This document shows, one piece after another, positions 32,171-51,570 of a stretch of 54,960 nucleotides of DNA. The position numbers were made by a program, and so were the translations under genes. This DNA comes from Pseudomonadota bacterium. GTDB lineage: Bacteria > Desulfobacterota > S145-22. The DNA lies in assembly GCA_015493505.1 (NCBI GenBank), contig WGDA01000065.1, positions 1 to 54,960 on the forward strand, in the 5' to 3' direction. The notes beneath the pieces were generated by a model. The model ran no database searches, was not told the origin of the DNA, and saw nothing but the letters and a program-made list of their open reading frames with translations. The number at the start of each line of letters is the position of its first letter. Position 1 is the stretch's first letter.

Positions 32171-32921
32171 GATTCTCCTGAGGTGCCGTGATATCCTTGA
32201 TGACGCCCAGCGGGAAGAAATTGACCATTTCCGTATCGACCCATTTGCAGGCATCCGCCGGACTCATTTTCAGGTTTGTGGGGCAGGGAGACAAGACTTC
32301 CACCAGGGTGAATCCCAAGCCCTGAAGCTGGATTTCGAAGGCCTTGCGAACCGCCTTTTTGGTGGCGCGAATACCGGCCGGTGTGGTGACGGATGTCCGT
32401 TCGATATAAGCACTGCCGCGCGTGACAGCCAGCATCTCGCTAAGGTTCAGGGGAAAGCCATCCCGATTTCCCGTCCTTCCGCCTGGTGAGGTGGTGGTGG
32501 GTTGCCCCAGGATGGTGGTCGGGGCCATCTGCCCGCCCGTCATGCCGTACACGGCGTTGTTGACAAAAATACAGGTAATCTTTTCCCCCCGGTTTGCCGC
32601 GTGAACCGTTTCCGCCGTGCCGATGGCAGCGATGTCTCCGTCTCCCTGGTAGGTGAAGACCAGATGATCCGGGAGCACGCGTTTGACACCCGTGGCCAGG
32701 GCAGCGCCACGTCCGTGGGCGGCCTCTCCCATATCCACGTCGAAATAGTTGTAGGCGAGAACCGCGCATCCCGCGGGGGGAATCCCGATGGCAATCTCAT
32801 CAGCCTCCATCTCCTCGATGACCTCGGCCACAACCCGGTGGAGCAGGCTGTGTCCGCAACCCGGACAATAGTGAAAGGGATTGGGTTTGAGGAGTTTGGG
32901 CCGGCTAAAAACCTTTTTCAT
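32157..32921 (-). CDS. 2-oxoacid:ferredoxin oxidoreductase beta (TPP-binding) subunit, Vor type
   Basis: YCPGCGH, AHGRG, GDGD...NN TPP motif, YGMTGGQ, SPCPT. Confidence 0.93.
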   Translation of the reverse strand: MKKVFSRPKLLKPNPFHYCPGCGHSLLHRVVAEVIEEMEADEIAIGIPPAGCAVLAYNYFDVDMGEAAHGRGAALATGVKRVLPDHLVFTYQGDGDIAAIGTAETVHAANRGEKITCIFVNNAVYGMTGGQMAPTTILGQPTTTSPGGRTGNRDGFPLNLSEMLAVTRGSAYIERTSVTTPAGIRATKKAVRKAFEIQLQGLGFTLVEVLSPCPTNLKMSPADACKWVDTEMVNFFPLGVIKDITAPQENHDAH

Positions 32922-34001
32922 TTAAACAATCTCCTTCTGGAAAAACTGTCGCGAGATGATTCTCGCGATTTCGGCCGGATTGGGGACTACCCCTCCGGGT
33001 CTCCCGTAGAAAAAGACATCCGCGTCCCCTTTCAGGGCGAGCTGCACGTCTTCAACCATCTGTCCGGCGTTCAATTCAAACACAAAGAAGTGTTTGGCAT
33101 GCTTAGAGAGCTCCCGAAGCGCCTTTTTGGGATAAGGCCACAGGGTGATTGGCCGCAGCAGCCCGACAGGCAATCCCTCCGCCCTGGCGCGTTTCACCGC
33201 AGCCTTGGCGATGCGGGCGGCGGTTCCAAAAGCCACGATAACCAGTTTGGCGTCTTCTGTTTTGAACGTTTCGTATTGGACTTCCTGGTCGGTGATTTGT
33301 TCATATTTGCGAATCAGCTTCCAGTTGTGTTCCTCCATCTGTCCCGGGTCCAGAATCAGGGATCGGATAAAATGGCTCTTCCGGCCTTTGGCGCCGGTAA
33401 TTGTCCAGGGCTTCTTGGGGAGTTTCTGAACATCTCTCAAAACGGGGAACCGGACCGGCTCCATCATTTGTCCCATCATTCCGTCCGCCAGAATGAGAAC
33501 GGGGTTGCGGTAATGGTCCGCGAGATCGAAGGCGCGGTAAGTGAGGTCACAAAGCTCCTGGCCGGACGCAGGCGCCAGGACGATCGTCCGGTAATCTCCA
33601 TGTCCCCCCCCACGGGTCGCCTGAAAATAATCCGACTGGGAAGGGGCAATATTTCCGAGACCGGGGCCGCCCCGCATCATGTTGACGATAACGGCGGGAA
33701 GTTCCAGCCCTCCCAGATAGGAAATGCCTTCCTGCTTCAGGCTGATTCCCGGAGAGGAAGAGGAAGTCATGACCCGCGCGCCAGCCATGCTCGCGCCGAT
33801 CACCATATTGATCGAGGCGATCTCACTCTCGGCCTGGACAAACGTTCCGCCTACCTCCGGAAGCCGCCGGGACATGTATTCGGGGAGCTCATTCTGAGGG
33901 GTAATGGGGTATCCAAAGTAATACCGGCATCCCGCGCGCACGGCAGCCTCTGCCACGATATGGCTTCCCCGCATCAGGGAAGGTTTTTCATCTCTCTTCA
34001 C
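32922..34001 (-). CDS. vorB: 2-oxoacid:ferredoxin oxidoreductase alpha subunit (VorB-like, 2-oxoisovalerate)
   Basis: FGYPITPQNE, QAESEIA, TSSSSPG, RGGPGLG, ELNAGQM. Confidence 0.88.
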   Translation of the reverse strand: MKRDEKPSLMRGSHIVAEAAVRAGCRYYFGYPITPQNELPEYMSRRLPEVGGTFVQAESEIASINMVIGASMAGARVMTSSSSPGISLKQEGISYLGGLELPAVIVNMMRGGPGLGNIAPSQSDYFQATRGGGHGDYRTIVLAPASGQELCDLTYRAFDLADHYRNPVLILADGMMGQMMEPVRFPVLRDVQKLPKKPWTITGAKGRKSHFIRSLILDPGQMEEHNWKLIRKYEQITDQEVQYETFKTEDAKLVIVAFGTAARIAKAAVKRARAEGLPVGLLRPITLWPYPKKALRELSKHAKHFFVFELNAGQMVEDVQLALKGDADVFFYGRPGGVVPNPAEIARIISRQFFQKEIV

Positions 34002-34236
34002 GGCACACCTCGATGGCTACTTCCGGGCACATGATGGCGCACAATGTGCATCCCGTGCACCCGCGCCCGTTTTCCGCTTTTTTGCTTGTCTTTTTCGCGA
34101 CGGCATAGAAATATCCCATGCCATTGCGTTGCGATCCAATCTCGATCACACCATTAGGGCAGGTTTCAACGCATAACCCGCATCCCTTGCAGAGATTGGA
34201 ATCAATTTTAATAGACCCTTTCAAACTACCCTCCAT
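33988..34236 (-). CDS. 2x[4Fe-4S] ferredoxin-like delta subunit
   Basis: CKGCGLCVETCP and CTGCTLCAIMCP; TTG at 34224 after GGAGG may be the true start. Confidence 0.9.
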   Translation of the reverse strand: MEGSLKGSIKIDSNLCKGCGLCVETCPNGVIEIGSQRNGMGYFYAVAKKTSKKAENGRGCTGCTLCAIMCPEVAIEVCREER

Positions 34237-34745: not shown

Positions 34746-35642
34746 TCAGCTCATCCCCTCCTTTTTGACAATCATCATGGACAGATATCGTTCCTGATCC
34801 TCTTCCAGGGTTTTTTTGTCCAGCTCCTTCATGACCCGCTGGTCCGGGAGACAGCATTTCTGGACCCAGATGGCCCGGTGCAACAGCCCCTCTTCTTCAA
34901 GGTTTTTAATCAGCATTTGGGCGTCACTGGGGATCTTCATGAAAACCAGGTTGTCTGAGTGACGAATAAGAGGGCGGAGCTGGGCTTCGTCGATTTGCGC
35001 GGAAGGGATCAGGGTCAGGCTTTCCCCGTCAATGGCCAGGGGAACATTCAGCAAGTTTGAGGCGGCTGTGACCATCGTTACGCCCGGGATGATCTCCACC
35101 CGGACACCCGGTGACAGCTTGGTCAGGTTCCGCAGGAGGTGGGAAAAGGTGCTGTAGAGGGATGGATCTCCCAGAGTGATGTACCCGCAGTCCTGGCCTG
35201 TTTTCAATACCTCGAAGACCTTTTTGGCGTTTTCTGCCCAAATGGCGTCGAATTCATCCCGGTCATAAGTCGCTTTAAACTCGAGAAACTGAACCTGGGA
35301 AGAAGCCGGAAGGTATTTTTCGGCAATGGTGTAGGCGATGCTCTCGGAGACGCCTTCCTTCTTGGAGGCGAAGACCATCTCGAGGCTTCTCAACCGGTCG
35401 ATGGCCTGAAGCGTGATCATGCGCGGGTCTCCGGGGCCGACCCCGATGGCGTAGAGGGTTCCCCCTATTTTTTCTTTCTGCTGGCGCTGCCTTAAACGGT
35501 TTTGTTTGCCCAGTTCGTGGATCAGGCACGAGGGGCGAAACCTGCAGTATTCGTGAGGGTGTACGCAAACGGTGTTTTCGTCCAGCGGGATTTTCTTGTT
35601 GTATTTCTGGCAATATCCGTATTCCAGGCCCGGTTCGCTCAA
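34746..35642 (-). CDS. cbiL: Precorrin-2 / cobalt-factor II C20-methyltransferase with Cys-rich N-terminal extension
   Basis: LYAIGVGPGDP, ITLGDPSLYSTF, IIPGVT, LVFMK, YLSMMIV; TTG start overlaps cobO TGA. Confidence 0.85.
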   Translation of the reverse strand: MSEPGLEYGYCQKYNKKIPLDENTVCVHPHEYCRFRPSCLIHELGKQNRLRQRQQKEKIGGTLYAIGVGPGDPRMITLQAIDRLRSLEMVFASKKEGVSESIAYTIAEKYLPASSQVQFLEFKATYDRDEFDAIWAENAKKVFEVLKTGQDCGYITLGDPSLYSTFSHLLRNLTKLSPGVRVEIIPGVTMVTAASNLLNVPLAIDGESLTLIPSAQIDEAQLRPLIRHSDNLVFMKIPSDAQMLIKNLEEEGLLHRAIWVQKCCLPDQRVMKELDKKTLEEDQERYLSMMIVKKEGMS

Positions 35643-36163
35643 AACTCGATCCCCCTCTGAGCTTTGATTCCTTTCTGATAAGGATGTTTGATTTCCCGCA
35701 TTTCCGTGACCAGATCTGCCCGCTTGACGATTTCCTCCGGGGCGTTTCTTCCCGTGAGAATGAGATGCAGGGCGTGAGGTTTTTCATCGATCAGCATGAG
35801 CACCTCTTTCTCGCTGATCAATCCGAACCCGATGGCGTAAATGATTTCATCCAGGATCAGTATATCCGCGTCGCGGAGGTGCGCGCGGGCGTAGGCGAGG
35901 GCTTCAGCCGCTGCCTTCTTGTCTTCTTCGGCGATTTTCCCGTCGGTCGAGACGAATCCCCGGCCCATGGGGTGCAGGGTGAAATTCTCAAATTTTTTGG
36001 CGGATTCCAATTCACCGTATTTCCAGGAGCCCTTGATGAACTGAACCATCAGGACCCTGTACCCATGCCCGAGGGCGCGAAACGCCAAACCCAGCGCGGC
36101 AGTCGTTTTCCCCTTTCCGTTTCCCGTATGGACGATGACCAGCCCCGTACGTTCAGGTGACAT
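35639..36163 (-). CDS. cobO: Cob(I)yrinic acid a,c-diamide adenosyltransferase
   Basis: TGNGKGKTTAALG, QFIKG, ILDEI, LTGRNAP, ADLVTEM, KHPY...GIEF. Confidence 0.95.
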   Translation of the reverse strand: MSPERTGLVIVHTGNGKGKTTAALGLAFRALGHGYRVLMVQFIKGSWKYGELESAKKFENFTLHPMGRGFVSTDGKIAEEDKKAAAEALAYARAHLRDADILILDEIIYAIGFGLISEKEVLMLIDEKPHALHLILTGRNAPEEIVKRADLVTEMREIKHPYQKGIKAQRGIEF

Positions 36164-36331
36164 CTGTATGCCAGCTCCTTAGAAGTATAATCTTACCCTT
36201 TACGTATCTGAGGCGATTTTGTCAAGGGTGGTGGAGTGAAAATTCTGTTTTTTTTCGGGAGATTCATTGAGCCATGAAAAGAAAAAACTTCCCTCACAAG
36301 TTCTTCCTACGGCGGAGAGTAAAAGGAGGAA

Positions 36332-37132
36332 TTACTTCATAGGGAGAGGAGTTCCCGTGGAAAGCAGAATGGCCTGCCGGGTCATTTCCTTTCGTTTGCA
36401 GTCCGGGCAGAGGTCTTGCAGCGCGGCTTTGAGCGCCGTGTCGAGCTTTTCGAGGGTGTTGTCCACGAAGGGAGAGGGAGCGAAATACCTGCCACAGCTC
36501 TGGCATGTCTTGAGGGGGACTTTGGTCCCGCTCCAGGACTTCATGATCCGGTTCGGCGCGATATCCTCGATAGCAATGGCACCGGTCGGGCACACTTCCG
36601 CGCACGCTCCACAGCCCTGGCACGTCTCGTTCTCCTCAAAAAACGGGGTATTGATTTCCGTGAACTGCCCCCTTCCGATGTAGTTGATGGCGCCCACGCC
36701 CATGACGTCCCGGCAAACCCGGACGCACAACCCGCAGAGGATGCACCGGTTTTGCAGGGGATCGTCCCGAACCGTTTTTTTCGTGAAACGGGTCCTGGTT
36801 ACCCCATAGCGCGCGGCAAGGGCACGGATGGATTCGGAGCGGGGGGCCTGGGCAAGGTAGAGTTCCAGAAGGGCCTTGCGGAGCCGTATGATTTCCGGCG
36901 ATTCAGTAAGGACGTCCAGGCCCTCAGTTACTTGAAGGGTACAGGAGGTCGTGATGCCTTCCCGACCCCCCTTGACCACCTCCACGAGGCACATGCGGCA
37001 TGCACCGTAAGGCGCGAGGGCCTCTTCGTAACAGAACGAGGGGATGTCAATCCCGTTTCGCCGGGCGACGGCGAGCAGGATTTCACCTTCTTCCGCCGCG
37101 CAGGTTTTTCCGTCGATGATGACCTGAATCAT
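36332..37132 (-). CDS. Fe-S protein resembling the NuoG/HydA N-terminal module, no catalytic domain
   Basis: [2Fe-2S] IPSFC...GACRMC...TSC; two [4Fe-4S] motifs CILCGLCVRVC and CQGCGACAEVCP; C-terminal CQSC...CPDC. Confidence 0.88.
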   Translation of the reverse strand: MIQVIIDGKTCAAEEGEILLAVARRNGIDIPSFCYEEALAPYGACRMCLVEVVKGGREGITTSCTLQVTEGLDVLTESPEIIRLRKALLELYLAQAPRSESIRALAARYGVTRTRFTKKTVRDDPLQNRCILCGLCVRVCRDVMGVGAINYIGRGQFTEINTPFFEENETCQGCGACAEVCPTGAIAIEDIAPNRIMKSWSGTKVPLKTCQSCGRYFAPSPFVDNTLEKLDTALKAALQDLCPDCKRKEMTRQAILLSTGTPLPMK

Positions 37133-37133
37133 G

Positions 37134-38825
37134 TTATGGGACCCCTTTCAGGTAGGCGTCATATTCGTTTCTGAAATACTTGAGGGTGGTCAGCACGGGA
37201 TTGGGAGCCGTCTGCCCCAGCCCGCAGAGGGAGGTTTTTTTGATGACACCGGAGAGCTCTTCCAGGGTGGCCATGTCGGATTCTGTTGCCTTTCCGACCA
37301 GGATCTTGTCAAGGAGCATGAGCATGTGTTTCAGCCCTTCCCGGCAGGGGACGCACTTTCCGCACGACTCCTCGTTGGTAAATCCGATGAAAAACCGTGC
37401 CGTGTCCACCATGGAGGTGAGCTCGTCCATCACGACAACCCCTCCCGAACCCATGATGGATCCGACGGCCGTCAGGTGTTCATAATCCATGGGGGTGTCG
37501 AACAGAGAGGCGGGGATACACCCCCCGGAGGGGCCGCCTGTCTGAACAGCCTTGATTTTACGCCCCTCGATCCCGCCGTTTCCAACATCATAGACAAGGG
37601 TTTGGATGGGTGTTCCCAGCGGCACCTCGACCAGCCCGACACGCTGGACCTCGCCCACGAGGGAAAAGACCTTGGTGCCACTGTTTTTCTCTCCGCCGAT
37701 TCGTGAGAACCAGGCGCCGCCTTTCTGGATGATGACGGGGATATTCGTCCACGTCTCCACGTTGTTGATGTTGGTGGGCATTCCCCAAAGCCCTTTCTGA
37801 GCGGGAAAGGGAGGACGAGGCCTGGGACGTCCCGTTTTCCCCTCGATAGACGCGATGAGGGCGGTTTCCTCGCCGCAGACGAACGCCCCCGCACCTTCCG
37901 CGATGGTCAGTTCAAAGCTGAAATCCGTTCCGAAGATATTTTTTCCGATCAGTCCGTAATCCCGTGCCTGCGCGATGGCCCGGGTCAGCCGCTGGATCGC
38001 AAGGGGGTATTCCGCGCGCACATAGATGACACCCTCACGCGCCCCGATGGCGTAAGCCCCGATAAGCATGCCCTCCAGGATCATGTGCGGATCGCTTTCC
38101 ATCTCATTCCGGTTCATGTAAGCGCCGGGGTCACCTTCGTCCGCATTGCAGATGATGTATTTCTGGAGACTCTTTTCCTGCTTCGTGAAGTTCCATTTCA
38201 TCCCGGTGGGGAATCCGCCGCCACCCCTGCCGCGAAGCCCGGAAGCGATGACTTCCTCGATCACCTCTTCAGGGGTCATGGCCGTGAGGGCCTTGTGGAG
38301 TGCGCTGTATCCCCCCACCGCGATGTATTCCTCGATCTCTTCCGGATTGATGAGTCCCGCGTCGCGAAGGACGATTTTCCGCTGCGGAGCGAAGTAGGGG
38401 ATCTCGTCATACACGGGGATGTCCTCGAAACCGGTGCCGAAGACGAGCTTTTCCCCCACGATGGGGTCCCACTCTTCGACACGGCAGAGGGCGAGATCCT
38501 GCGGGACCGTTTCCGCGGCCACGGCTTCGACGATTTTTTCGGCATCCGTTTCCGCGACCCGATGCAGGATGATTAGGGATTTTCCCGGAAGATGGATGGA
38601 AACCAGGGGCTCTTCCCGGCAATACCCGATGCAGCCGGTTCGAGTCAGGAGAACCTGGAGGTTTCGTTGCGACAAGGCGTTTTTCAGCGCCGCAAAGACT
38701 TTGTCACCTCCCGCCGCGATGCCACAGGTGGCCAGCCCCACCGTGATCCGGGGGACCCCCGGGAAAAGCCTCCGAACGGATTGAGACCTGACTTTTTCCA
38801 GATCGGCTTTGGTTTTAAGTTTAAT
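37134..38825 (-). CDS. NuoF/HydB-like FMN/NAD(P)H-binding diaphorase subunit with N-terminal thioredoxin-like Fe-S domain
   Basis: GLRGRGGGGFPTG, NADEGDPGAYM, FVCGEETAL, NNVET, ESCGKCVPCREG, LCGLGQTAPNP. Frame stays open 28 codons upstream of the track's GTG (38741), to ATT 38825 / ATC 38828. Confidence 0.88.
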   Translation of the reverse strand: MKLKTKADLEKVRSQSVRRLFPGVPRITVGLATCGIAAGGDKVFAALKNALSQRNLQVLLTRTGCIGYCREEPLVSIHLPGKSLIILHRVAETDAEKIVEAVAAETVPQDLALCRVEEWDPIVGEKLVFGTGFEDIPVYDEIPYFAPQRKIVLRDAGLINPEEIEEYIAVGGYSALHKALTAMTPEEVIEEVIASGLRGRGGGGFPTGMKWNFTKQEKSLQKYIICNADEGDPGAYMNRNEMESDPHMILEGMLIGAYAIGAREGVIYVRAEYPLAIQRLTRAIAQARDYGLIGKNIFGTDFSFELTIAEGAGAFVCGEETALIASIEGKTGRPRPRPPFPAQKGLWGMPTNINNVETWTNIPVIIQKGGAWFSRIGGEKNSGTKVFSLVGEVQRVGLVEVPLGTPIQTLVYDVGNGGIEGRKIKAVQTGGPSGGCIPASLFDTPMDYEHLTAVGSIMGSGGVVVMDELTSMVDTARFFIGFTNEESCGKCVPCREGLKHMLMLLDKILVGKATESDMATLEELSGVIKKTSLCGLGQTAPNPVLTTLKYFRNEYDAYLKGVP

Positions 38826-39318
38826 GATGATTTCCCTCCCAACCGAATTGTTTCAGAATCGACGGAATCCGCTCGGGGGTGACGTATCCGAAGATTTTGT
38901 TGTCGACCCGCAGAACAGGGGCCATGCTGCACGCCCCGAAACAGCGGGCCGAGGTAAGCGTATATTCTCCGTCGTCCGTCGTCAAAAGAAATTTTCCGTC
39001 CCGTGTCGTTTCGTCCATTTCCACGCCAAGGTGGTGTTTCAGTGATGCAACAAGTTCCGGCGCCCCCTTGACATGGCAGGCGGTTCCCATGCAGACCGTC
39101 ACCACGTGCCTGCCCAGAGCCTCGAGGGTGAAAAAGGAGTAAAAGGTGGCAATACTGTACAGCTCCGACAGCGGGAGCTCCAGCCTTTTGGCGAGGAGTT
39201 TCAGCACGTCTTTCGGAAGATACCCCATCTCCCGTTGAATATGCTCGAGAATGCCGAGGATTTTCCCAGTGGGGGTGGGGTATCTCCCGATGATTTCTTC
39301 CAATCGCTGAGGTTCCAT
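38821..39318 (-). CDS. NuoE/HydC-like [2Fe-2S] subunit
   Basis: IATFYSFF, CMGTACHVKG, CFGACSMAP; ATG directly abuts the cooS stop. Confidence 0.92.
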   Translation of the reverse strand: MEPQRLEEIIGRYPTPTGKILGILEHIQREMGYLPKDVLKLLAKRLELPLSELYSIATFYSFFTLEALGRHVVTVCMGTACHVKGAPELVASLKHHLGVEMDETTRDGKFLLTTDDGEYTLTSARCFGACSMAPVLRVDNKIFGYVTPERIPSILKQFGWEGNHH

Positions 39319-41211
39319 TTAGATACCGAGCCCTTTTCGTTTTTTCTCAATGACCTCTTCCAGAATGTCCGCCGCCTTGACGGGATCGGGTTCCACGGCA
39401 AAGGCGGCGTTGATGAGCCCGTTGAGCCCTTCCGTGAGCAGGTTGATGACATTCGGACTGCCGAAAATCTTGGGTGGCACATCCAGGACCGTGAAGACTC
39501 CGGAGGCCACAAAGTAGGCGCCGATGGAGATGGCTTTCTGGGAATACCATTCGGGCGCGGCGCCACCCAGGGGCAGGTCTTCAATCCCGACGTTCAGCTC
39601 CTTGGCGATATTGGCCGCCAGAACGAGGATGCGGGAGCAGTCCACGCAGGAACCCATGTGAAGAATCGGTGGAATCTTCAGGGCTTCGCAGACGGAGCGC
39701 AGCCCATCTCCCGCCAGGCTGGCCGCTTCCGGCACCAGCAGGCCCGCCTTGCCGCTGGCGATGGCGGCGCATCCGGTTTCCACCACCAGGATGTCCCGTT
39801 TGATCAGTTCCTTCCCCAGGGTGATGTGCCCGTAATCCTGCTTGACTTTGGGATTGTTACACCCCACGATTCCGACGGCCCCCCGAATCTTCCCGGCGAC
39901 GATGGCGTCGATGAGAGGTTTGTAGGAACCGCCCAGCGCCCCCCGGATGGCCTCTTCGGAGAAGCCCGCCATCATCTTCATGGGTTTGTCGGGGATTCTT
40001 ACCCGGTCGGGGTTCCGGTTGGGATAGTTTTCGATGGCCAACTTCACGATTTCCTTGGCGGTGTCCAGGGCGTTTTCAGGGTGGAACTCCATGTGGGTCG
40101 CGCCCGGAACCTTGGACAGCGCGCTCGTGGAGACCACCTTTGTGTGGTAACACTTTGCCGTGTCAGTGATGGACGGAAAGATACACTGATAGTCGATGAC
40201 CATCACCTCGACGCTGCCCGTCGCGATGGCCAGTTCCTGATCCAGCTCGTTCCCGGCAATGGGGATGCCGTGCCGCATGAGAAGCTCATTTCCCGTGCAG
40301 CACATCCCGACCAGGTTGATGCCCTTCGCTCCCTTTTCCTTCGCCAGCTTTTTCAGGTCGGGATCGTCGGCCGCGATAACCACCATCTCCGAGAGGATGG
40401 GGTTGTGGCCATGCATCACGATGTTGACCTCGTCCTTTTTGAGGACTCCGAGATTGGCCAGTGCCGTGTTGGGAGTGGGGGTGCCAAAGAGGATGTCCGA
40501 CCCCTCGGTGGCCATCATGGATCCTCCCCAGCCATCCGAAAGGGACGCCCTCAGGGCATGGAGCAGGATGTTGGCGTAATCCGCCCCAACCCCCATGTGC
40601 ACCCGGTGCATCGCTTCGACAATCTCACGATCCACGCTTCGAGGGACGATTCCCAGCTTTTTCCACATCTCCTGGGTCTTGGCTGGGGCCCGCCTGGAGA
40701 GCTGAATCTCGTTTTTAATGGTGCCAAACTCCTCCAGCATGGCCAGGGCGAGGGCCTTTGCCATCTCTTCCTTGCTTTTGCCTTCCGTTTCTATCCCGTA
40801 TTCCGTCGCCACGGTTTTCAGCTTTTCGGCATCCAGAATCTGATACCCCTGAGATTTCCCTTCCGCCGTCTCCAGAAGGACCTGGATAACCTCTCGGCCA
40901 TGATCTGAATGGGCGGCCGCGCCCGTGGCCAGGTCATCCAGCAGGTTTCGGGCGGTGATCAGATCGTTGGTGGCGCCACAGACGCCCCGTTTTGGCTCCC
41001 CTCCGAAGGGGTCGATCCGGCATGGCCCCATGACGCATCGGTTGCAGCAGATGCCCAATTGCCCGAATCCGCACTGAGGCTGCTGTTTCCTCAGCCGGTC
41101 CCAGGCGGTTTCGATGCCGTCTTCCATGGCCTTTTGCACGATCTCCTGATCGGTTTTGTCCAGGCATCTTTTCTCGGCCTCTTCATTGAGAACTTTTGGA
41201 TCAATATACAT
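39319..41211 (-). CDS. cooS: Anaerobic [NiFe] carbon monoxide dehydrogenase catalytic subunit
   Basis: D/B cluster QCGFGQLGICCNRCVMGPC...VCG; AHSDH; C-cluster ligands HGHNP, GMCCTGNE, DYQC, VGCNNPK, TGCA, GSCVDC; SQKA. Confidence 0.96.
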   Translation of the reverse strand: MYIDPKVLNEEAEKRCLDKTDQEIVQKAMEDGIETAWDRLRKQQPQCGFGQLGICCNRCVMGPCRIDPFGGEPKRGVCGATNDLITARNLLDDLATGAAAHSDHGREVIQVLLETAEGKSQGYQILDAEKLKTVATEYGIETEGKSKEEMAKALALAMLEEFGTIKNEIQLSRRAPAKTQEMWKKLGIVPRSVDREIVEAMHRVHMGVGADYANILLHALRASLSDGWGGSMMATEGSDILFGTPTPNTALANLGVLKKDEVNIVMHGHNPILSEMVVIAADDPDLKKLAKEKGAKGINLVGMCCTGNELLMRHGIPIAGNELDQELAIATGSVEVMVIDYQCIFPSITDTAKCYHTKVVSTSALSKVPGATHMEFHPENALDTAKEIVKLAIENYPNRNPDRVRIPDKPMKMMAGFSEEAIRGALGGSYKPLIDAIVAGKIRGAVGIVGCNNPKVKQDYGHITLGKELIKRDILVVETGCAAIASGKAGLLVPEAASLAGDGLRSVCEALKIPPILHMGSCVDCSRILVLAANIAKELNVGIEDLPLGGAAPEWYSQKAISIGAYFVASGVFTVLDVPPKIFGSPNVINLLTEGLNGLINAAFAVEPDPVKAADILEEVIEKKRKGLGI

Positions 41212-41235
41212 GGCTTCCCTCCTTTCGTAGGGGTC

Positions 41236-41853
41236 TTAATCCCTGAATATGCCGATGTCGGCGATTGATTTCATGATATCCCGGTAGGCCTGGATGTTGG
41301 GCGGGACCTCAGGCACCTCTACCTCCGCCCCGGAGGGCCGCAGGATCTTGAAGGTAAAATCCTTTCGATTCGTTCGAATGAGGTCATTCACGTCACCAAA
41401 CTCCAGGGCGCCGGTTTTGCACGCCTCCACGCAGGCCGGGATTCTTCCCGTCCTTTGCCGGTCGATGCAATGGTCGCATTTTGTGTTCACGTTCCGGTCG
41501 AGGGCGATCTGGTAAGTTTTGTCGAACTGGATGATCCCGAAGGGGCAGACCATGGCGCAGGCCGCGCACGCGATGCATTTCGCGTAATCCACGATGACAG
41601 AATCCGTTTCCGCGTCACGTTGCAGCGCGCCCGTTGGGCAGACCTGCAGGCAGGGAGCGGGGTCGCAATGGCGGCACCGGTTGGGGAAGGTCAAAAGGCC
41701 CGGCCCCACCTCCACGTGAATCCTCGGCTTCGGGATAGGGTCTTCCGAGACCGCCCCGAAAAGTGTTTTATTCTGAGAGTGTTCGATGGCGCACGCCACT
41801 TCACAGTGCCGGCAGCCGATACATCTTTCCGGCTTGACCATAACGGTGTTCAT
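41236..41853 (-). CDS. cooF: CooF-like 4x[4Fe-4S] electron-transfer protein
   Basis: CIGCRHCEVAC, CRHCDPAPCLQVCP, CIACAACAMVCP, KCDHC...PACVEAC; GGAGGTG RBS before ATG 41853. Confidence 0.9.
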   Translation of the reverse strand: MNTVMVKPERCIGCRHCEVACAIEHSQNKTLFGAVSEDPIPKPRIHVEVGPGLLTFPNRCRHCDPAPCLQVCPTGALQRDAETDSVIVDYAKCIACAACAMVCPFGIIQFDKTYQIALDRNVNTKCDHCIDRQRTGRIPACVEACKTGALEFGDVNDLIRTNRKDFTFKILRPSGAEVEVPEVPPNIQAYRDIMKSIADIGIFRD

Positions 41854-42018
41854 GATGTCACCTCCTTTTTTTACAAAGATAAGGTTTAACCGGGTGCCAC
41901 GGGGAGCCGTTTCCATATTCATAAAGGTTCAACAGGGTATTCTCCTTCACACCTTTATCCGGATGTGGCACATATTCCCCTCACAAAAACGAATTGTTCG
42001 GACTCAAAACAAAACTGT

Positions 42019-42024
42019 ATTATA
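42019..42024 (-). promoter_or_regulatory. -10 box of the coo operon (no recognisable -35; activator-dependent?)
   Basis: Perfect TATAAT on the minus strand; the expected -35 position reads TTTTTT. Confidence 0.45.
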
Positions 42025-42126
42025 TATGACATAACAGCCACAAAAAAACAATTATTTTTTTATGAAATAGGGCTTTTTCTTTGTAGGCGGTGCTATTTCG
42101 GAGTAAAGCACATCCTGGGGGTCGGC

Positions 42127-42828
42127 TTACTTTATTCCGAGCAGCCGGAGAAATTCTTTCGCTTTATTGCGGCTGACAGGCAGTTTTTTTGTGCTTCCCT
42201 GAACGCTCACAAAGACGGTCCCCGCGTCCTTGTGGACTTTGTTGATTTTCGACAGGTTGACTACATAGCTCCGGTGGATTCTGAAAAAATATCTGTGCGG
42301 GAGGCGGTCATACAGATTCCCGAGGGAAAGGCCGGAGAAATAGTTTTTTGAATGGGTATAAACCCTGCTGTAAACATTGTCTGCCTCTATGTAAACGACA
42401 TCTTTCAGGTCGATAAGCTTGATGTCGTTTTTGACGCCAATGGGAATCTTCATCAGGTGCATCGTGTTGTCAGAAATGAAAGGCGTGATGTCGTACATGA
42501 GCGCGCAACATAGCGATTCCTCCATTTCCGGAGACAGGAGGGAAATCAGTTTCATGAACAGATATCGAACACGCTGATCTTTGGAAAGAATTTTGATGGA
42601 GAAGGGAATCTGTCGTTTCGCCGTACTGAGGAGGCTGAGTATGCGGGTGATCTTTTCCGATGAGGGGGCCTGGTGCAGATCCATGAGGGATCCGCTGAAA
42701 ATCTCTTCGGGTGAGAATTCAGCAAAAATCGTCAGGATGACCCGGTTGATATAGTGGACCTTGAAGTCCTTGCCAAAGATGACAATGCCCGGGTCCAGCG
42801 TGTTCAATAAAGAGACGAGGTCATCCAT
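42127..42828 (-). CDS. PAS-LytTR transcriptional regulator, RcoM-like putative CO sensor
   Basis: N-terminal PAS (LDPGIVIF, INR, LMDLHQ); LytTR motifs VYIEADNVYS, FFRIHRSYVVNL, LPVSR; directly upstream of cooF-cooS. Confidence 0.85.
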   Translation of the reverse strand: MDDLVSLLNTLDPGIVIFGKDFKVHYINRVILTIFAEFSPEEIFSGSLMDLHQAPSSEKITRILSLLSTAKRQIPFSIKILSKDQRVRYLFMKLISLLSPEMEESLCCALMYDITPFISDNTMHLMKIPIGVKNDIKLIDLKDVVYIEADNVYSRVYTHSKNYFSGLSLGNLYDRLPHRYFFRIHRSYVVNLSKINKVHKDAGTVFVSVQGSTKKLPVSRNKAKEFLRLLGIK

Positions 42829-42840
42829 GATTGTTTCATC

Positions 42841-42868
42841 CTTATAAAAAAGCGGCGCGGGATGTCAA
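42841..42868 (-). promoter_or_regulatory. Sigma70 promoter of the PAS-LytTR gene
   Basis: TTGACA-N16-TATAAG, 12 nt upstream of the ATG. Confidence 0.5.
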
Positions 42869-42893
42869 GGAGGGGGACAGAGGACCGGGAGAA

Positions 42894-43183
42894 AAGTGAA
42901 TAGTGAAAAGTAAAAACTCAAAGGGATGGTCGAAGGCAGATTTCACCGGGGTAGAAGGAAAGGACTGAGAAACGGGGACTGAGGACTGCGTAAAACATGA
43001 ATTTCACACAAAGCCCCGGCACTAAAACCGATTACAAAATTGGTTAATATTATTGATTTTCTTTGCGTCTTAGCGCCTTCGCGTGAGGTAAGGAATGCGG
43101 TGCGAAGTCATCTATGGCTAAAACAACGGGACGAGGCACGCAGAGAGACAGAAAAAAAGGATGTCCTCACGTCTCACGTCCCC
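42894..43183. repeat. Cluster of short imperfect 7-8 nt tandem repeats of four different units
   Basis: AAGTGAA/TAGTGAA/AAGTAAA (42894-42914); GGACTGA-type units (42962-42989); CTTTGCGT/CTTAGCGC/CTTCGCGT (43061-43084); CTCACGT x2 (43166-43179). Confidence 0.7.
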
Positions 43184-43246
43184 CATCCCCGCCCGCGGCC
43201 CAGGGCTTCCCTAAGTCCAACCGTGTGTCTTGGGAAGGGGCATTCG

Positions 43247-43275
43247 TTGACTTTAAGGCTAAAATCTGCCATCCT
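43247..43275 (+). promoter_or_regulatory. Sigma70 promoter of tRNA-Sec
   Basis: TTGACT-N17-CATCCT with extended TG; predicted start site falls about 1 nt before the tRNA 5' end. Confidence 0.6.
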
Positions 43276-43282
43276 TACGAAC

Positions 43283-43378
43283 GGAAGTGGTTAGGTCACT
43301 GGTGGGCCTCCTGGACTTCAAATCCAGTGGTCCCGTGAAGAGCGGGACGGCGGGTTCGATTCCCGTCCACTTCCGCCA
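43283..43378 (+). tRNA. selC: tRNA-Sec (UCA)
   Basis: 8-bp acceptor stem GGAAGTGG/CCACTTCC, anticodon loop CT-TCA-AA, long variable arm (GTCCCG-TGAAGAG-CGGGAC), GGTTCGATTCC T-arm, G-CCA end; 96 nt. Confidence 0.95.
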
Positions 43379-43404
43379 ACCCGTTTTTTTTAAAGGAGGT
43401 CGTC

Positions 43405-43623
43405 ATGATTGGTGGAATCGGCGTAACGGAGCTTATTATTATTCTTGTGATTGTCATCATAATATTTGGAGCGAGACGGCTGCCGGAACTTGGAAGTGGC
43501 ATCGGCAAGGCTATTAAAAATTTCAAGAAGGCTACTTCTGGACAGGATGAAATTGACGTGACCCCTAAAGTCAAAAAAGACGAAAAAAATGATGATAGTA
43601 CAACGAACAATCCTACCTCTTAA
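43405..43623 (+). CDS. tatA: Twin-arginine translocase TatA/E
   Basis: [29 protein letters not shown]; AGGAGG RBS. Confidence 0.94.
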
Positions 43624-43641
43624 CCATTCGGGAAACCTTTT

Positions 43642-44154
43642 TTGGGGAAAATATTCCATAAAACTTTAATTGGGATGGGTTCAAACGTAGGGGACAGGGT
43701 GGCAATGTGCTGTGCCGCCATTGAACGCCTGAGAGTACATCCGTCGATTGAAGATGTCAGGACGTCACCGTTTTATGAAACGGCCCCGGTTGGCGTGACG
43801 GAACAGCCTCCCTTTCTCAACCTGGCAATTGAAGCCCGAACGACACTTTCTCCAACGGATCTCCTTGCGACACTCAAAAATTTGGAACAGGAGCTCGGAA
43901 GGGTGAGGCGATTTCGCTGGGGTCCCCGGGAGATCGATCTGGATATCCTGCTTTATGATTCACTGATCTTGTCGACCGATCGCTTGACAATCCCCCATCC
44001 GGAAATGCATAAACGGGCTTTTGTGCTGGTCCCCGCGTGCGATATCGCGGCAGACTGGCCACACCCCGTTCTCCAGAAGCCTTTGGATGCCCTTTTAAAC
44101 GCTGTATCCCTTGAAGAGGTGACGCCTTACCGGGGGCCTGTTCCATGCGTTTGA
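43642..44154 (+). CDS. folK: 2-amino-4-hydroxy-6-hydroxymethyldihydropteridine diphosphokinase
   Basis: GMGSNVGD, YETAP, FLN, RWGPREIDLDILLY, IPHP, RAFVLVP. Confidence 0.95.
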   Translation: MGKIFHKTLIGMGSNVGDRVAMCCAAIERLRVHPSIEDVRTSPFYETAPVGVTEQPPFLNLAIEARTTLSPTDLLATLKNLEQELGRVRRFRWGPREIDLDILLYDSLILSTDRLTIPHPEMHKRAFVLVPACDIAADWPHPVLQKPLDALLNAVSLEEVTPYRGPVPCV

Positions 44155-45373: not shown

Positions 45374-46492
45374 ATGGCCGGCCAAAGAGGGGTCCTTGTT
45401 CCGTTAAAGGCATTTGCCCTCAGCCGCGGGGCGCTGTTTGTGTTCGCGTGGGTTACCCTTGCACTTTTCCCCATCAAAAGCGGTAAGCGATACTGGCGCG
45501 CCTTTCCCCATAACACCGCGCTGGATGGATGGGCGCGGTTCGATTCAGGGTGGTATGCAAGAATCGCAAAGTATGGGTATCAGAATATCCCGATGGGAGA
45601 TGGGCAGGATACGAATTTTTTCCCCATGTATCCATTGGTGATCCGGACGGTCGGGAAAATAGTGGGAAATATTTACCTCGCCGGGATCATCGTTTCAAAC
45701 GCCGCTTTTTTGCTTGCCCTGATTGGCTTGCATGGGCTGGTTGTCAAAAGGTATGGTCCGGCGCTCGCGAAAAGAACGGTGACCCTTCTGGCCTTCAACC
45801 CCTTTTCCTTCTTTTACAGCGCCGTTTACGCGGAGGCGCTGTTCCTGTTCTTTCTCGTTTACGCGTTCTATCTCTGTGAAAACCGGAGGTATTTTCTCGC
45901 GGGGGTTTCCGCCGCCTGCGCGGGAGCGACCAGGAATCTCGGCGTCTTTGCCTTTGTGGGGCTGGGATTGTTGGCTCTAAGGCAAAGGGAGAATGCCCCA
46001 CGACGCCTGGAGGCCAGGGCGCTTTGGCTGCTTCTTGCCGCGGTGGGGCCCCTGGCGTACAGTGTTTTTTTGTGGATTCGGTTCAACGACCCGCTCCTTT
46101 TTCTCCACGCGCAGCGGGCATGGGGCACGTTTAGCCCGTTGGGAAATTTAACCCATATCTTCAACACGTTTCATACCAATCGATTTCTGGCATTGGGACG
46201 CCTGGCGCTGTTTCTGTTACACGCGGGGGTCGGGATTTTTTCTATTCTGCTGGTACTGAAAGTGGGGAAGTTTTTGAAAATGCCCTATGTGATTTTCTCT
46301 CTTTTACTTATCCTCCCCGGCTTTTTGAGGCTCACAAGCCTGGGGCGGTACGTAATGGTGGTGTTTCCGGTCTTCATCGCGCTTGCGATGGTGACTGACA
46401 AAAGATGGGTGTACAGAGGGGCTCTCGCCGTGGAAGGCTGTCTGCTCCTCCTGCTCTCTTTAATGTTTACCCACTGGTACTGGGTGGCGTAG
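45374..46492 (+). CDS. GT-C membrane glycosyltransferase (PIG-V-like mannosyltransferase)
   Basis: RFDSGWY..IA..GY, FFPMYP, YAEALF, QRAW; multiple TM segments. Confidence 0.8.
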   Translation: MAGQRGVLVPLKAFALSRGALFVFAWVTLALFPIKSGKRYWRAFPHNTALDGWARFDSGWYARIAKYGYQNIPMGDGQDTNFFPMYPLVIRTVGKIVGNIYLAGIIVSNAAFLLALIGLHGLVVKRYGPALAKRTVTLLAFNPFSFFYSAVYAEALFLFFLVYAFYLCENRRYFLAGVSAACAGATRNLGVFAFVGLGLLALRQRENAPRRLEARALWLLLAAVGPLAYSVFLWIRFNDPLLFLHAQRAWGTFSPLGNLTHIFNTFHTNRFLALGRLALFLLHAGVGIFSILLVLKVGKFLKMPYVIFSLLLILPGFLRLTSLGRYVMVVFPVFIALAMVTDKRWVYRGALAVEGCLLLLLSLMFTHWYWVA

Positions 46493-47723: not shown

Positions 47724-47828
47724 CCGGAAGATCCTAAGCGTCGTTTTTAATGTGACACAATAACATTGTCCGAGCGCAAAATTAAGCTGTCGTTTTGCAA
47801 CTCCTAGAAATAAATATTTACAACTTAC

Positions 47829-47857
47829 TTGACAATAACCATATACCATATTATATT
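47829..47857 (+). promoter_or_regulatory. Sigma70 promoter of the MerR-NifX-MinD operon
   Basis: TTGACA-N17-TATATT. Confidence 0.65.
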
Positions 47858-47888
47858 TGAAAAAAGCAAGAGAGTGGTGGATGAAATA

Positions 47889-49241: not shown

Positions 49242-49261
49242 GGACGTGAAAGGAGACAGCA

Positions 49262-50164: not shown

Positions 50165-50201
50165 TGGTTGCGCAGAAGTTAGAACCCATCAGGAGGAAGA
50201 C

Positions 50202-50747: not shown

Positions 50748-50753
50748 GGAGGT

Positions 50754-51164: not shown

Positions 51165-51180
51165 GTGAGGATGCGAACCG

Positions 51181-51537: not shown

Positions 51538-51570
51538 CGAAAGGACTCTTAACCGGAAGGGGTGATTTTA

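Follow-up and report, generated by a model that had tools for sequence, protein, structure and literature searches.

A conserved CooF-CooS gene cluster with a shortened BfuB-like subunit may encode a soluble, non-bifurcating CO:NAD(P)+ oxidoreductase

Introduction

An enzyme combining the CO dehydrogenase proteins CooS and CooF with HydABC-type subunits was proposed as a bioinformatic prediction in 2022 under the name Codh-Bfu (Schut et al., PMC9304861), and in 2025 under the name CodhABCSF (PNAS, PMC12318220). The general design of the locus analyzed here had thus already appeared in print; the statement of the initial annotation that no biochemical characterization is known agrees with our literature search, which found no purification or biochemical characterization of a CooS-CooF-NuoEFG-like enzyme. 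In the published definition of the Bfu family, IPR017896 is required in BfuB. A structure is available for WorABCSL, in which a zinc finger plus helix joins WorA to the CooF homologue WorS and electrons follow the route A4-A2-A1-B1 (PMC12318220). Here we describe a cluster that appears to be a hitherto undescribed variant without the ferredoxin-binding part; what is new is this variant and not the general design.

Results

The window (the complete 54,960 nt stretch of DNA analyzed) contains, between positions 36332 and 42828, six ORFs that all lie on the minus strand, exactly as first annotated (Table 1). A gene for a PAS-LytTR regulator is followed by the tightly packed genes cooF-cooS-nuoE-nuoF-nuoG, the last of which is short. 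The sequence confirms that the nuoE ATG directly abuts the cooS TAA (0 nt) and that 1 nt separates the nuoF stop from the nuoG ATG; the spacing between cooF and cooS is 24 nt. The nuoE/nuoF overlap that had also been noted is obtained when nuoF starts at an ATC or ATT codon (38831-38823), but not with the first standard start codon, GTG 38741, upstream of which no ATG, GTG or TTG start is present. Homologues of nuoF have an ATG at exactly the ATC/ATT position in all cases but the nearest relative, locus L002, and the start is non-canonical if placed at ATC 38831. The most likely cooF start is ATG 41853 and not ATG 41922, because the Shine-Dalgarno sequence AAGGAGGTG precedes the former by 6 nt. 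As noted before, the window ORFs that were scanned include no gene for ACS or an energy-converting (Ech/Coo) hydrogenase, and no cooC either. The latter gene adjoins the other clusters examined, and its absence from the window counts against the reading that we favor below.

Table 1. Features of the CO dehydrogenase locus.
Feature	Position	Strand	Description
RcoM-like regulator	42127..42828	-	PAS + LytTR, 233 aa
Intergenic region regulator/cooF	41854..42126	-	AT-rich
cooF	41236..41853	-	205 aa from ATG 41853; ORF reaches 41922; four [4Fe-4S] clusters
cooS	39319..41211	-	Ni,Fe-CO dehydrogenase catalytic subunit, 630 aa
NuoE/HoxE/BfuC-like [2Fe-2S] subunit	38821..39318	-	165 aa
NuoF/BfuB-like flavoprotein	37134..38831	-	565 aa if start = ATC 38831
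Short NuoG/HoxU/BfuA-like subunit	36332..37132	-	266 aa

The five-gene unit is present in 21 of the 80 genome loci seeded with CooS, and the five genes occur in identical order in Thermodesulfobacteriota, Anaerolineae, Lentimicrobiaceae, Methanomicrobiales and Archaeoglobaceae. When look-ups were seeded from NuoG-like or NuoF-like homologues all nine fell in clusters of this kind, including those of the cultured Methanospirillum stamsii, M. hungatei, Methanoplanus endosymbiosus and Desulfurobacterium thermolithotrophum, and in all contexts examined this NuoEFG-like subfamily was located beside cooS only. Moreover, the identities of CooS, NuoE, NuoF and NuoG to their window counterparts co-vary (r 0.89-0.94, 19 loci). 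The gene arrangement is far beyond chance, and the view that the five genes form one conserved unit is borne out across bacterial phyla and archaea. Sister CooS operons have cooC and FNOR (Pyr_redox_2), a single NAD(P)-linked flavoprotein, in place of the module, and long-form relatives with a full BfuB occur within the same CooS clade.

The CooF-type ferredoxin (Fer4_11, 3e-22) has 16 cysteines in four motifs, corresponding to four [4Fe-4S] clusters, and among PDB entries it matches HycB4 (7QV7_B) and WorS (9MQX_E) best, E 1.6e-20. Its C-terminal tail gives no specific evidence of docking, because it is equally conserved in FNOR-type operons. CooS scores 699 bits against TIGR01702 (cut-off 478), with 6T7J_B as best PDB match (E 8.5e-241). 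In agreement with the initial annotation, every ligand motif of the B-, C- and D-clusters was located: the D/B-cluster motif C47-x7-C55-C56-x2-C59-x4-C64...C78, and for the C-cluster the histidine in VMHGHNP and the cysteines in GMCCTGNE, DYQCIFP, VGCNNP, ETGCAAI and MGSCVDC. The motifs AAHSDH and SQKA are also present, and presumably hold the equivalents of catalytic His93 and Lys563 (CODH-II numbering).

The NuoE-like subunit matches PF01257 (6.6e-46); its hits to the models for HoxE and NuoE (1e-41 to 1e-38) are under the curated cut-offs of these models. The NuoF-like protein contains PF01512 and PF10589 as its only Pfam domains and is laid out as a thioredoxin-like N-terminal domain, an FMN/NAD(H) site and one [4Fe-4S] cluster, without the C-terminal ferredoxin domain. 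Its closest PDB sequences are the BfuB subunits 9N5U_B and 7T2R_B (E about 1e-194), but the alignment does not extend beyond residue ~527-530 of these chains, and the subunit ends before the two-[4Fe-4S] (B3/B4) ferredoxin-binding domain. This absence had been missed by the initial annotation. In addition, the equivalent of the B2/Zn-site histidine, His525 of A. mobile HydB, is a tyrosine. The short form is common to 91 of the 119 closest relatives, mostly from Methanomicrobiales, and the histidine is kept in none of these 91, whereas all 28 long relatives have it. An AlphaFold model (pLDDT 87.5) matched BfuB chains with TM 0.88-0.91 and FdsB with 0.85/0.94 in Foldseek. Among homologues, residues C36, C67, C71 and E74 and the cysteines C490, C493, C496 and C536 are invariant; the B1 cysteines and the motifs of the FMN and nucleotide sites show no variation. 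By sequence, then, the module is not a generic NuoEFG, and its NuoF-like subunit is closest to BfuB/HydB of electron-bifurcating enzymes. We propose that the module descends from a bifurcating Bfu (HydABC-type) core that lost the ferredoxin-binding C-terminal domain together with the adjacent Zn/B2 site.

The NuoG-like protein (Fer2_4, Fer4_7) contains a [2Fe-2S] and two [4Fe-4S] clusters followed by a C-terminal four-cysteine zinc finger and helix. WorA (9MQX_A) is its best PDB sequence match (E 3.6e-39) as well as the top Foldseek match of its AlphaFold model (pLDDT 88; TM 0.77/0.82). Sixteen cysteines are invariant across 52 homologues, the zinc finger being among the invariant features, and comparison of the same 52 revealed no ligands for a His-type [4Fe-4S] cluster. 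As had been noted, there is no H-cluster or Mo/W domain; the His-ligated [4Fe-4S] site is missing too. The similarities indicate that the protein is a WorA-type "plug".

The regulator matches LytTR (7e-24) and PAS_4 of Pfam, a two-domain architecture that it has in common with RcoM, the haem-containing PAS-LytTR CO sensor of Burkholderia-type cox/coo operons. It is homologous over its full length to the RcoM-type LytTR protein adjoining coxMSL on Paraburkholderia aromaticivorans pBN2 and keeps the proximal histidine, but the identity is only 27%. It also sits beside CO dehydrogenase genes, and two homologues that were looked up are both encoded immediately upstream of cooS operons. Among 24 homologues His52 is invariant and Cys108 nearly so. 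The ligands of RcoM are His74, Cys94 and Met104; equivalents of Cys94 and Met104 are not kept in the pairwise alignment. The protein probably senses CO through haem and thereby turns on the operon. CO induction is plausible, given the regulator's homology and gene position; the earlier label "CO-inducible" overstated what these two features convey. The region between the regulator gene and cooF contains a TATAAT and an imperfect direct repeat of 21 nt whose copies lie 59 nt from each other, and a block around ATTATGTCAT is kept in locus L002; a consensus promoter scan of the region did not rise above shuffled background. This region is the likely promoter/operator.

Discussion

On balance, we lean towards the reading that cooF-cooS-nuoE-nuoF-nuoG encode one soluble complex that transfers electrons from CO to NAD(P)+ without bifurcation. 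CO would be oxidized at the CooS C-cluster, and electrons would pass via the B- and D-clusters of CooS to the four [4Fe-4S] clusters of CooF. From there they would move into the short NuoG-like subunit, anchored to CooF through its C-terminal zinc finger and helix, run from A4 via A2 to the [2Fe-2S] cluster A1, and travel over B1, the single [4Fe-4S] cluster in the NuoF-like subunit, to FMN, from which hydride would be transferred to NAD(P)+. The link to NAD(P) is suggested by the invariant FMN/nucleotide motifs and B1 cysteines and by the FNOR of sister operons. Since the B3/B4 domain and the Zn/B2 site are lost, the module is expected to behave like the FdsBG NADH module or Hox hydrogenase. 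The potentials (E0') of CO2/CO and NAD+/NADH are about -520 mV and -320 mV, respectively, and electron transfer from CO to NAD+ is strongly downhill. Such a reaction would suit CO scavenging or detoxification together with NAD(P)H production. In the energy metabolism of Methanomicrobiales NAD(H) plays only a small part, which counts against our reading. Bifurcation is considered absent because, besides the missing B3/B4 domain, the lost B2/Zn histidine and the FdsB-like layout, deletion of B3/B4 in T. kivui HydABC abolished bifurcation (as cited in PMC11829005).

Loss of the ferredoxin domain decides between this simple enzyme and a Codh-Bfu that still bifurcates, reducing NAD+ and ferredoxin together, with ferredoxin docking away from the lost B3/B4 domain, for example on CooF or on the mobile C1 domain in the NuoE-like subunit. 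The nearest sequence and fold relatives of the NuoF-like protein are all bifurcating BfuB subunits (identity 54-56%, versus 38-47% to FdsB or NuoF), full-length BfuB forms exist in the same CooS clade, and the N-terminal B5 site, made up of 3 Cys and a Glu, is retained together with the C1 cluster of the NuoE-like subunit, points that weigh against our reading. FMN-B1-C1, retained here, is moreover the proposed minimal bifurcating site (PMC11829005), and ferredoxin could therefore conceivably take electrons from C1 or CooF directly. Even so, we regard continued bifurcation as unlikely: the window module falls outside the published Bfu definition because its BfuB-like subunit is without the ferredoxin-binding domain, the B2/Zn histidine has gone from every short relative, the HydABC deletion speaks against it, and the potential of CO is low enough for either acceptor without coupling. 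It is improbable, too, that two separate enzymes are co-expressed, CooS-CooF reducing free ferredoxin and a stand-alone NuoEFG-like enzyme re-oxidizing it to produce NAD(P)H. Diffusible ferredoxin does serve CooS/CooF pairs in other systems. The same CooF type with its C-terminal tail is found in FNOR-type operons, and Schut et al. raised this question for Codh-Bfu (PMC9304861). However, the WorA-type zinc finger and helix of the NuoG-like subunit serve to dock a subunit of the WorS/CooF type, the module itself is without a ferredoxin-binding domain, and its subfamily is confined to the neighborhood of cooS in the contexts examined.

There is little to recommend a role in a non-CO/CO2 reaction, in which NAD(P)H would feed CooS/CooF for reductive reactivation or oxidant detoxification. 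Work on CODH-IV has connected some clusters of CooS, CooF and a flavoprotein with oxidative stress, but the CooS of the window has a complete, canonical active site and groups with active enzymes (6T7J, 6B6V), and no rubrerythrin or similar partner is adjacent among the window ORFs. Equally slim are the chances of the reverse direction, in which NADH, perhaps with another donor, would drive reduction of CO2 to CO for biosynthesis, for example with an ACS encoded elsewhere. Ni-CODHs are reversible, and Inoue et al. 2019 placed NuoEFG-like COGs in Wood-Ljungdahl contexts; yet with NADH alone the reaction is ~200 mV uphill (~39 kJ/mol at standard potentials), the ferredoxin input for confurcation is absent, the scanned window ORFs include no ACS, and the regulator, being RcoM-like, points to a response to CO as substrate. 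The "NADH-assisted CO2 reductase" of the initial annotation is accordingly disfavored. Its placement of CooS-CooF at the catalytic-module position of a HydABC/Bfu-type module, on the other hand, agrees with the WorA-type zinc finger/helix and with FNOR in the equivalent place, so that of the earlier interpretation the single gene unit and the module type stand, and the CO2-reductase alternative does not.

The proposed non-bifurcating complex is most readily compared with Codh-Bfu/CodhABCSF, in which CooS and CooF are likewise encoded alongside HydC-, HydB- and HydA-like subunits, the BfuA being of the WorA type with zinc finger and helix, and which is, as here, biochemically uncharacterized. 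The published examples, four sequences from Firmicutes plus Sporomusa silvacetica, have a full BfuB and carry the CODH genes between bfuB and bfuA, whereas the window has the order cooF-cooS-C-B-A, belongs to a Thermodesulfobacteriota-like bacterium, and encodes a BfuB without the B3/B4 domain and B2/Zn histidine, i.e. without the defining feature of the family. WorABCSL, the bifurcating tungsten aldehyde oxidoreductase of Acetomicrobium mobile (PDB 9MQX), provides the best sequence and fold match to the NuoG-like subunit (WorA), a homologue of CooF (WorS), and counterparts of the NuoF- and NuoE-like subunits (WorB, TM 0.91, and WorC), and its A4-A2-A1-B1-FMN wire would be expected in the window complex too. 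It differs in having a tungstopterin catalytic subunit instead of a Ni-CODH, and a WorB with C-terminal B3/B4 domain and Zn site that reduces ferredoxin; WorABCSL, moreover, forms a nanowire with 1:3 stoichiometry.

Soluble, non-bifurcating enzymes in which a catalytic module is wired to NAD+ via NuoG-, NuoF- and NuoE-like parts are the NAD+-dependent formate dehydrogenase FdsABG (PDB 6VW8, 6TG9) and the NAD-reducing Hox hydrogenase (HoxEFU; 5XF9). FdsB has the same thioredoxin-like N-terminal domain plus NuoF core and also lacks the C-terminal ferredoxin domain. Sequence identity is only about 38%, however, and in these enzymes the NuoG-like part has retained the His-ligated cluster and is either fused to a Mo or NiFe module or in contact with it, whereas in the window a separate CooF would bridge to CooS. 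Finally, the cooS-cooF-FNOR operons with RcoM, e.g. that of Geobacter sulfurreducens (as cited in PMC11247825), share with the window the CooS/CooF clade, the PAS-LytTR kind of regulator and a pyridine-nucleotide-linked partner downstream; there, the partner is one FAD flavoprotein (Pyr_redox_2), and in the window it is a three-subunit FMN/Fe-S module.

Organization of the gene unit

Six reading frames are present on the minus strand of region 36332-42828, and these, together with their Pfam/NCBIfam matches (see table), bear out the gene content proposed in the initial annotation: an RcoM-like regulator followed by cooF, cooS and nuoE-, nuoF- and nuoG-like genes. The tight coupling on one strand that had been noted also holds, as the cooS TAA directly abuts the nuoE ATG and a single nucleotide separates the nuoF stop codon from the nuoG ATG. 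Gene cooF sits 24 nt upstream of cooS; its most likely start, ATG 41853, lies 6 nt after AAGGAGGTG and gives a product of 205 aa.

Genes of the cooF-cooS-nuoEFG-like unit and the matches on which their assignment is based
Feature	Position	Strand	Matches
PAS + LytTR regulator	42828..42127	minus	Pfam/NCBIfam
CooF-type protein, four [4Fe-4S] motifs, 16 Cys	start most likely ATG 41853	minus	Fer4_11 (Pfam)
CooS	41211..39319	minus	TIGR01702, PF03063
NuoE/HoxE-like [2Fe-2S] protein	39318..38821	minus	PF01257
NuoF-like flavoprotein	ends at 37134	minus	PF01512 + PF10589
NuoG/HoxU-like protein, 266 aa	37132..36332	minus	Fer2_4 + Fer4_7

The operon probably ends after nuoG, as judged from the 168-nt gap only. 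No clear terminator was seen by eye downstream of nuoG, and a TTGACA box is present ahead of cobO (36163..35639), the gene following nuoG. Promoter and terminator scans of region 35500-43700 were uninformative because the sites obtained were fewer than, or no more than, those in shuffled sequence. Long antisense ORFs are located within cooS (39073-40908, plus strand, 611 aa) and within the 2-oxoacid oxidoreductase genes (32502-34034, plus strand, 510 aa). Both have low-complexity translations rich in Gly, Arg and Pro, and are almost certainly not genes.

The start of nuoF

The nuoF frame contains no ATG, GTG or TTG between the upstream stop codon and GTG 38741. The nuoE/nuoF overlap described in the initial annotation is therefore real only if nuoF starts at a non-canonical codon (ATC/ATT). 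The conserved N-terminus of the NuoF-like protein (IIIKLKTKADLEKV...) begins at ATC ATC ATT (38831-38823, minus strand), a site that is preceded by GGAGGG and overlaps the nuoE TAA. Among 20 homologous loci with NuoE and NuoF matches, an ATG is found exactly at the position of the window's ATC in 16 and a few codons off in three; only L002 (12375-12383), the closest relative, also has ATC ATC. Public gene calls for the lineage use the internal GTG (535-aa entries), thereby dropping 30 residues. Given the overlap with the nuoE TAA, the sequence suggests that nuoF may be translated by coupled re-initiation at a non-AUG codon. The junction contains no slippery heptamer that would point to a programmed frameshift joining NuoE to NuoF.

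CooS and CooF

CooS scored 699 bits against TIGR01702 (cut-off 478) and 2.6e-184 against PF03063, and its best solved relatives were 6T7J_B (E 8.5e-241) and the 6B6V/6VWY CODHs. In agreement with the claim that CooS has all B, C and D cluster ligands, every ligand motif was found (residues 46-64, 78, 99-104, 265-271, 302-309, 340-346, 449-454, 478-484, 519-527 and 556-561). The AAHSDH and SQKA motifs are present, which we take to hold the catalytic His and Lys in CODH-II numbering; the roles of the other motif residues are likewise assumed from this numbering. Structure 6T7J is presumably that of the Thermococcus sp. AM4 enzyme, and 6B6V/6VWY presumably those of the (Nitrati)desulfovibrio vulgaris enzyme. 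A 2026 survey of CODHs places the enzymes of these two organisms in clade E. CooF matches the nanowire subunits HycB4 and WorS. Its C-terminal tail (NIxAFRxIM...) was considered as a Bfu-specific docking element and discarded, because the tail is conserved equally in operons that encode a single Pyr_redox_2 flavoprotein (FNOR).

The NuoF-like protein resembles BfuB but lacks the C-terminal ferredoxin domain

The NuoF-like protein matched the BfuB/HydB chains 9N5U_B, 7T2R_B and 9BOV_B of electron-bifurcating HydABC-type (Bfu) enzymes with E values of about 1e-194, compared with 1e-121 for complex-I NuoF, and its AlphaFold model (pLDDT 87.5) superposes on BfuB chains with TM scores of 0.88-0.91. 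PF01512 and PF10589 are its only Pfam domains. Its sequence comes to an end three residues past the four-helix bundle, which on A. mobile HydB corresponds to residue ~530. It lacks all of the C-terminal ferredoxin-type domain (IPR017896) expected of a BfuB, with its two [4Fe-4S] clusters B3 and B4. The B2/Zn-site histidine and its downstream cysteines are missing as well: the histidine (His525 in A. mobile HydB), which is kept in 1550/1558 BfuB sequences, is replaced by Tyr, and the positions of C531 and C536 fall beyond the end of the protein.

Other features of the Bfu family are retained. The thioredoxin-like N-domain, which was modelled and superposes on BfuB chains, contains the B5 site (three Cys and one Glu in Csac NfnB, 3C1E) as C36, C67, C71 and E74, invariant in 37 sequences. 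The unit also encodes a NuoE-like [2Fe-2S] BfuC (PF01257) and a BfuA in which both a [2Fe-2S] domain and a 4Fe-4S ferredoxin domain are present (Fer2_4 + Fer4_7).

The short form, as we call a BfuB-like protein without the B3/B4 domain, is widespread. It accounts for 91 of the 119 closest database relatives (those in the tree), the other 28 being long; the B2/Zn histidine is found in none of the 91 short and in all 28 long relatives. The short end is common to L002 and all Methanomicrobiales loci, and the H...Cx4C and two CxxCxxCxxxCP motifs are retained in Lentimicrobiaceae, Archaeoglobaceae, Desulfurobacterium, Caldisericaceae and another Anaerolineae MAG. An assembly or frameshift artefact was rejected as the cause of the short NuoF, as nuoG begins 1 nt past the stop codon and dozens of independent genomes show the same end. 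In delimiting the Bfu family, Schut et al. (2022) required a ferredoxin-type domain in BfuB and left out metagenomic data; the short form therefore falls outside that survey by construction.

At locus L004 (12776-15970, Anaerolineae MAG), whose CooS is 81% identical to that of the window, the NuoF-like protein is 1064 aa long. Its C-terminus is fused to a GltD/NfnB-like module (Fer4_20 + Pyr_redox_2) that replaces the ferredoxin domain. This fusion is a third variant, which may link CO oxidation to both NAD and NADP.

The NuoG-like subunit is of the WorA type

The best solved match of the NuoG-like protein (AlphaFold model pLDDT 88) was WorA, chain 9MQX_A, both in sequence (E 3.6e-39, residues 2-251) and in fold (Foldseek TM 0.77/0.82). 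WorA, 247 aa in length, serves as BfuA in the tungsten aldehyde oxidoreductase WorABCSL (PDB 9MQX). Across 52 NuoG-like homologues there is no variation in the four cysteines for the [2Fe-2S] cluster, the eight for a pair of [4Fe-4S] clusters or the four of a C-terminal zinc finger (C210, C213, C242 and C245), and a helix is predicted at 243-258. The segment corresponding to that of the His-ligated cluster in NuoG/HydA, ELYLAQAPRSESIRALAARYGV, contains neither His nor Cys, and the same applies to the 52 homologues. This composition is that of a WorA-type (Type 2) BfuA: A1, A2 and A4 are present, A3 (His-ligated) and A5 are absent, and a zinc finger is followed by a helix. WorA in the WorABCSL structure uses its zinc finger and C-terminal helix to dock the CooF homologue WorS, and electrons pass along A4-A2-A1-B1 to FMN (PMC12318220). 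The full set of N1b, N4 and His-ligated N5 that characterizes the NuoG of canonical NuoEFG/HoxEFU was not found, and there was no PF10588 match. A plain complex-I NuoEFG or HoxEFU paralogue was rejected because the similarity to BfuB and WorA is much greater and there is no His-ligated cluster.

The regulator and the intergenic region

The regulator has the N-terminal PAS and C-terminal LytTR domains of RcoM and is encoded beside CO dehydrogenase genes. A full-length alignment shows 27% identity (pairwise E 1e-22) to a LytTR protein of Paraburkholderia aromaticivorans pBN2, whose gene is divergently adjacent to coxMSL, the classical RcoM setting. The family of the regulator is small and comprises 32 clusters of full or near-full length. 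In 24 homologues, the residue that aligns with the RcoM-type histidine, His52, is invariant, and Cys108 is nearly so. We take His74, Cys94 and Met104 to be the haem ligands of RcoM; in the 27%-identity alignment the position of Cys94 falls in a gap and that of Met104 is Ile/Lys. Of the two regulator homologues that were looked up, one directly precedes a cooS operon of the short Bfu type and the other a cooS operon of the FNOR type. It is therefore plausible that the regulator senses CO.

The 273-nt spacer between the regulator gene and cooF contains a TATAAT sequence, a 21-nt direct repeat that is imperfect and a block that is also found in L002. The repeat copies (41970-41990 and 42029-42049; GTTTTTGTGAGGGGAATATGT / GTTTTTTTGTGGCTGTTATGT, coding strand) are 59 nt apart and flank the TATAAT, the upstream copy being within the conserved block. 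The repeat is a candidate LytTR binding site.

Conservation and distribution of the cassette

A CooS-seeded scan using one genome per species yielded 80 loci. NuoE/F/G-like genes are located beside cooS in 21 of them, with the order cooF-cooS-nuoE-nuoF-nuoG in 17 of the 21, so that the neighbourhood survey proposed in the initial annotation finds the unit conserved. These loci are from Thermodesulfobacteriota, Anaerolineae, Lentimicrobiaceae, many Methanomicrobiales and Archaeoglobaceae. Identities to the window of CooS, NuoE, NuoF and NuoG co-vary (r 0.89-0.94), as expected for a cassette that is inherited and transferred whole. Searches seeded from NuoG-like (3/3) and NuoF-like (6/6) homologues all led to cooF-cooS-(cooC)-nuoE-nuoF-nuoG-(cooC) clusters, including those of the cultured hosts Desulfurobacterium thermolithotrophum, Methanospirillum stamsii, M. 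hungatei and Methanoplanus endosymbiosus. The CooS of the host, a Thermodesulfobacteriota-like bacterium, is 70-79% identical to that of Methanomicrobiales archaea (L006-L012, L016-L019, L026, L027) and the whole cassette is common to both, which indicates that it was probably transferred horizontally between domains.

Close CooS relatives without the nuoEFG-like trio have cooC and an FNOR gene in its place. An FNOR gene follows genes for same-clade CooS/CooF at loci L005, L013-L015, L021, L023, L030, L031, L033, L038 and L091, with cooC before it in about half. Two alternative pyridine-nucleotide modules thus serve one CooS/CooF clade and, since operons of both types have a regulator from one RcoM-like family, it is the NAD(P)-linked partner that is swapped.

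Gene cooC, encoding a CbiA/ParA-type Ni-insertion ATPase, was found in all nine related clusters looked up (L081-L083, L085-L090), either past nuoG or between cooS and nuoE. The window's operon has no cooC; cobO comes next instead. Three MinD/ParA-type P-loop proteins (49-54 kb) were rejected as operon-linked CooC, being Mrp/NUBPL-like or carrying 4Fe-4S inserts and being encoded beside NifX-like genes. Region 46467-54291 holds a putative group of metallocluster-handling genes. One product combines a cation-efflux protein with a Nitro_FeMo-Co (NifX-like) domain, and a second NifX-like protein stands alone; the others are a nitroreductase, a P-loop ATPase of the Mrp/NUBPL kind and two MinD-type ATPases into which 4Fe-4S motifs are inserted.

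As had been noted for the adjacent region, no ACS or energy-converting hydrogenase genes were found, and this extends to the ORFs scanned across the 55-kb window. The rest of the window contains housekeeping genes, among them those for ABC transport, sensor kinases, tRNA enzymes, a 2-oxoacid:ferredoxin oxidoreductase and the synthesis of cobalamin and molybdopterin. A 902-aa protein encoded at 12739-15447 (plus strand) matches the A-adding tRNA nucleotidyltransferase model over its whole length with 937 bits, below the cut-off of 1440; its N-terminal region is NrnA/DHH-like, and it also contains a CBS-like stretch.

Discussion

The locus belongs to a widespread short variant outside the Bfu definition, and the enzyme that it encodes is most likely a plain CO:NAD(P)+ oxidoreductase. 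CO would be oxidized at the C-cluster of CooS and electrons would pass through the B and D clusters to the four CooF clusters, from there through A4-A2-A1 of the NuoG-like plug to B1, and then via FMN to NAD(P)+. Transfer from CO to NAD(P)+ releases about 39 kJ/mol. It needs no coupling because E0' is about -520 mV for CO and -320 mV for NAD (values tabulated in PMC9304861). We infer the assembly of the CooS-CooF-NuoEFG-like complex, its acceptor and its lack of bifurcation.

The main rival to a plain CO:NAD(P)+ oxidoreductase is an enzyme in which ferredoxin is still co-reduced. The C1 and B5 sites through which this would occur are both retained in the short form; the B3/B4 domain is lost, and deletion of B3/B4 abolished bifurcation in T. 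kivui HydABC, according to the account cited in PMC11829005. The initial annotation had also offered an NADH-assisted CO2 reductase; this we consider unlikely, the reverse reaction being implausible without ferredoxin input. Its principal proposal of a CO:NAD(P)+ oxidoreductase was right in outline, but is already in print as a prediction. A 'Codh-Bfu' was proposed from four Firmicutes sequences, its nature as a single enzyme being left open (Schut et al. 2022; PMC9304861), and the 2025 WorABCSL paper names a hypothetical 'CodhABCSF', in which CooF is the counterpart homologous to WorS and which 'has yet to be purified' (PMC12318220). NuoEFG-type COGs are listed among CODH neighbours by Inoue et al. 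(2019); NuoEF-type partners are not specifically mentioned in the 2026 genomic-context survey of CODHs. Our literature searches found no characterized CODH-NuoEFG/Bfu enzyme, in line with the initial annotation, and no description of the methanogen clusters.

We tentatively propose, giving it slightly less than an even chance, that the short form is a distinct, undescribed class of soluble, non-bifurcating, NAD(P)+-reducing Ni-CODH that arose when a bifurcating Codh-Bfu enzyme lost its ferredoxin-binding domain. The five genes would have moved between Bacteria and Archaea as one cassette, and the short form would have come to prevail in Methanomicrobiales. If so, the short form would be a natural 'de-bifurcated' Bfu core with FMN-B1-C1-B5, and a control for the disputed Bfu mechanism. 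Because a single CooS clade includes natural pairs of short and long forms, these can be compared to ask whether B3/B4 alone separates a bifurcating Bfu from a plain NADH-linked enzyme. The CO:NAD(P)+ prediction is directly testable because both forms have cultured hosts, Methanospirillum hungatei, M. stamsii and Methanoplanus endosymbiosus for the short form and Desulfurobacterium thermolithotrophum for the long form. The abundance of the family in Methanomicrobiales of wetland and peat metagenomes suggests that hydrogenotrophic methanogens have an unappreciated CO sink, or a supply of NAD(P)H that depends on CO. For biocatalysis, an enzyme leading directly from CO to NAD(P)H would also be of interest, for example in NAD(P)H regeneration from CO or syngas.

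To our knowledge, the purification of a CODH joined to a NuoEF/Bfu-type NADH module has not been reported. Among known systems, FdsB of the non-bifurcating NAD-dependent formate dehydrogenase has the same layout as the short NuoF-like protein, with a thioredoxin-like N-domain, an FMN core and B1 (TM 0.85/0.94).
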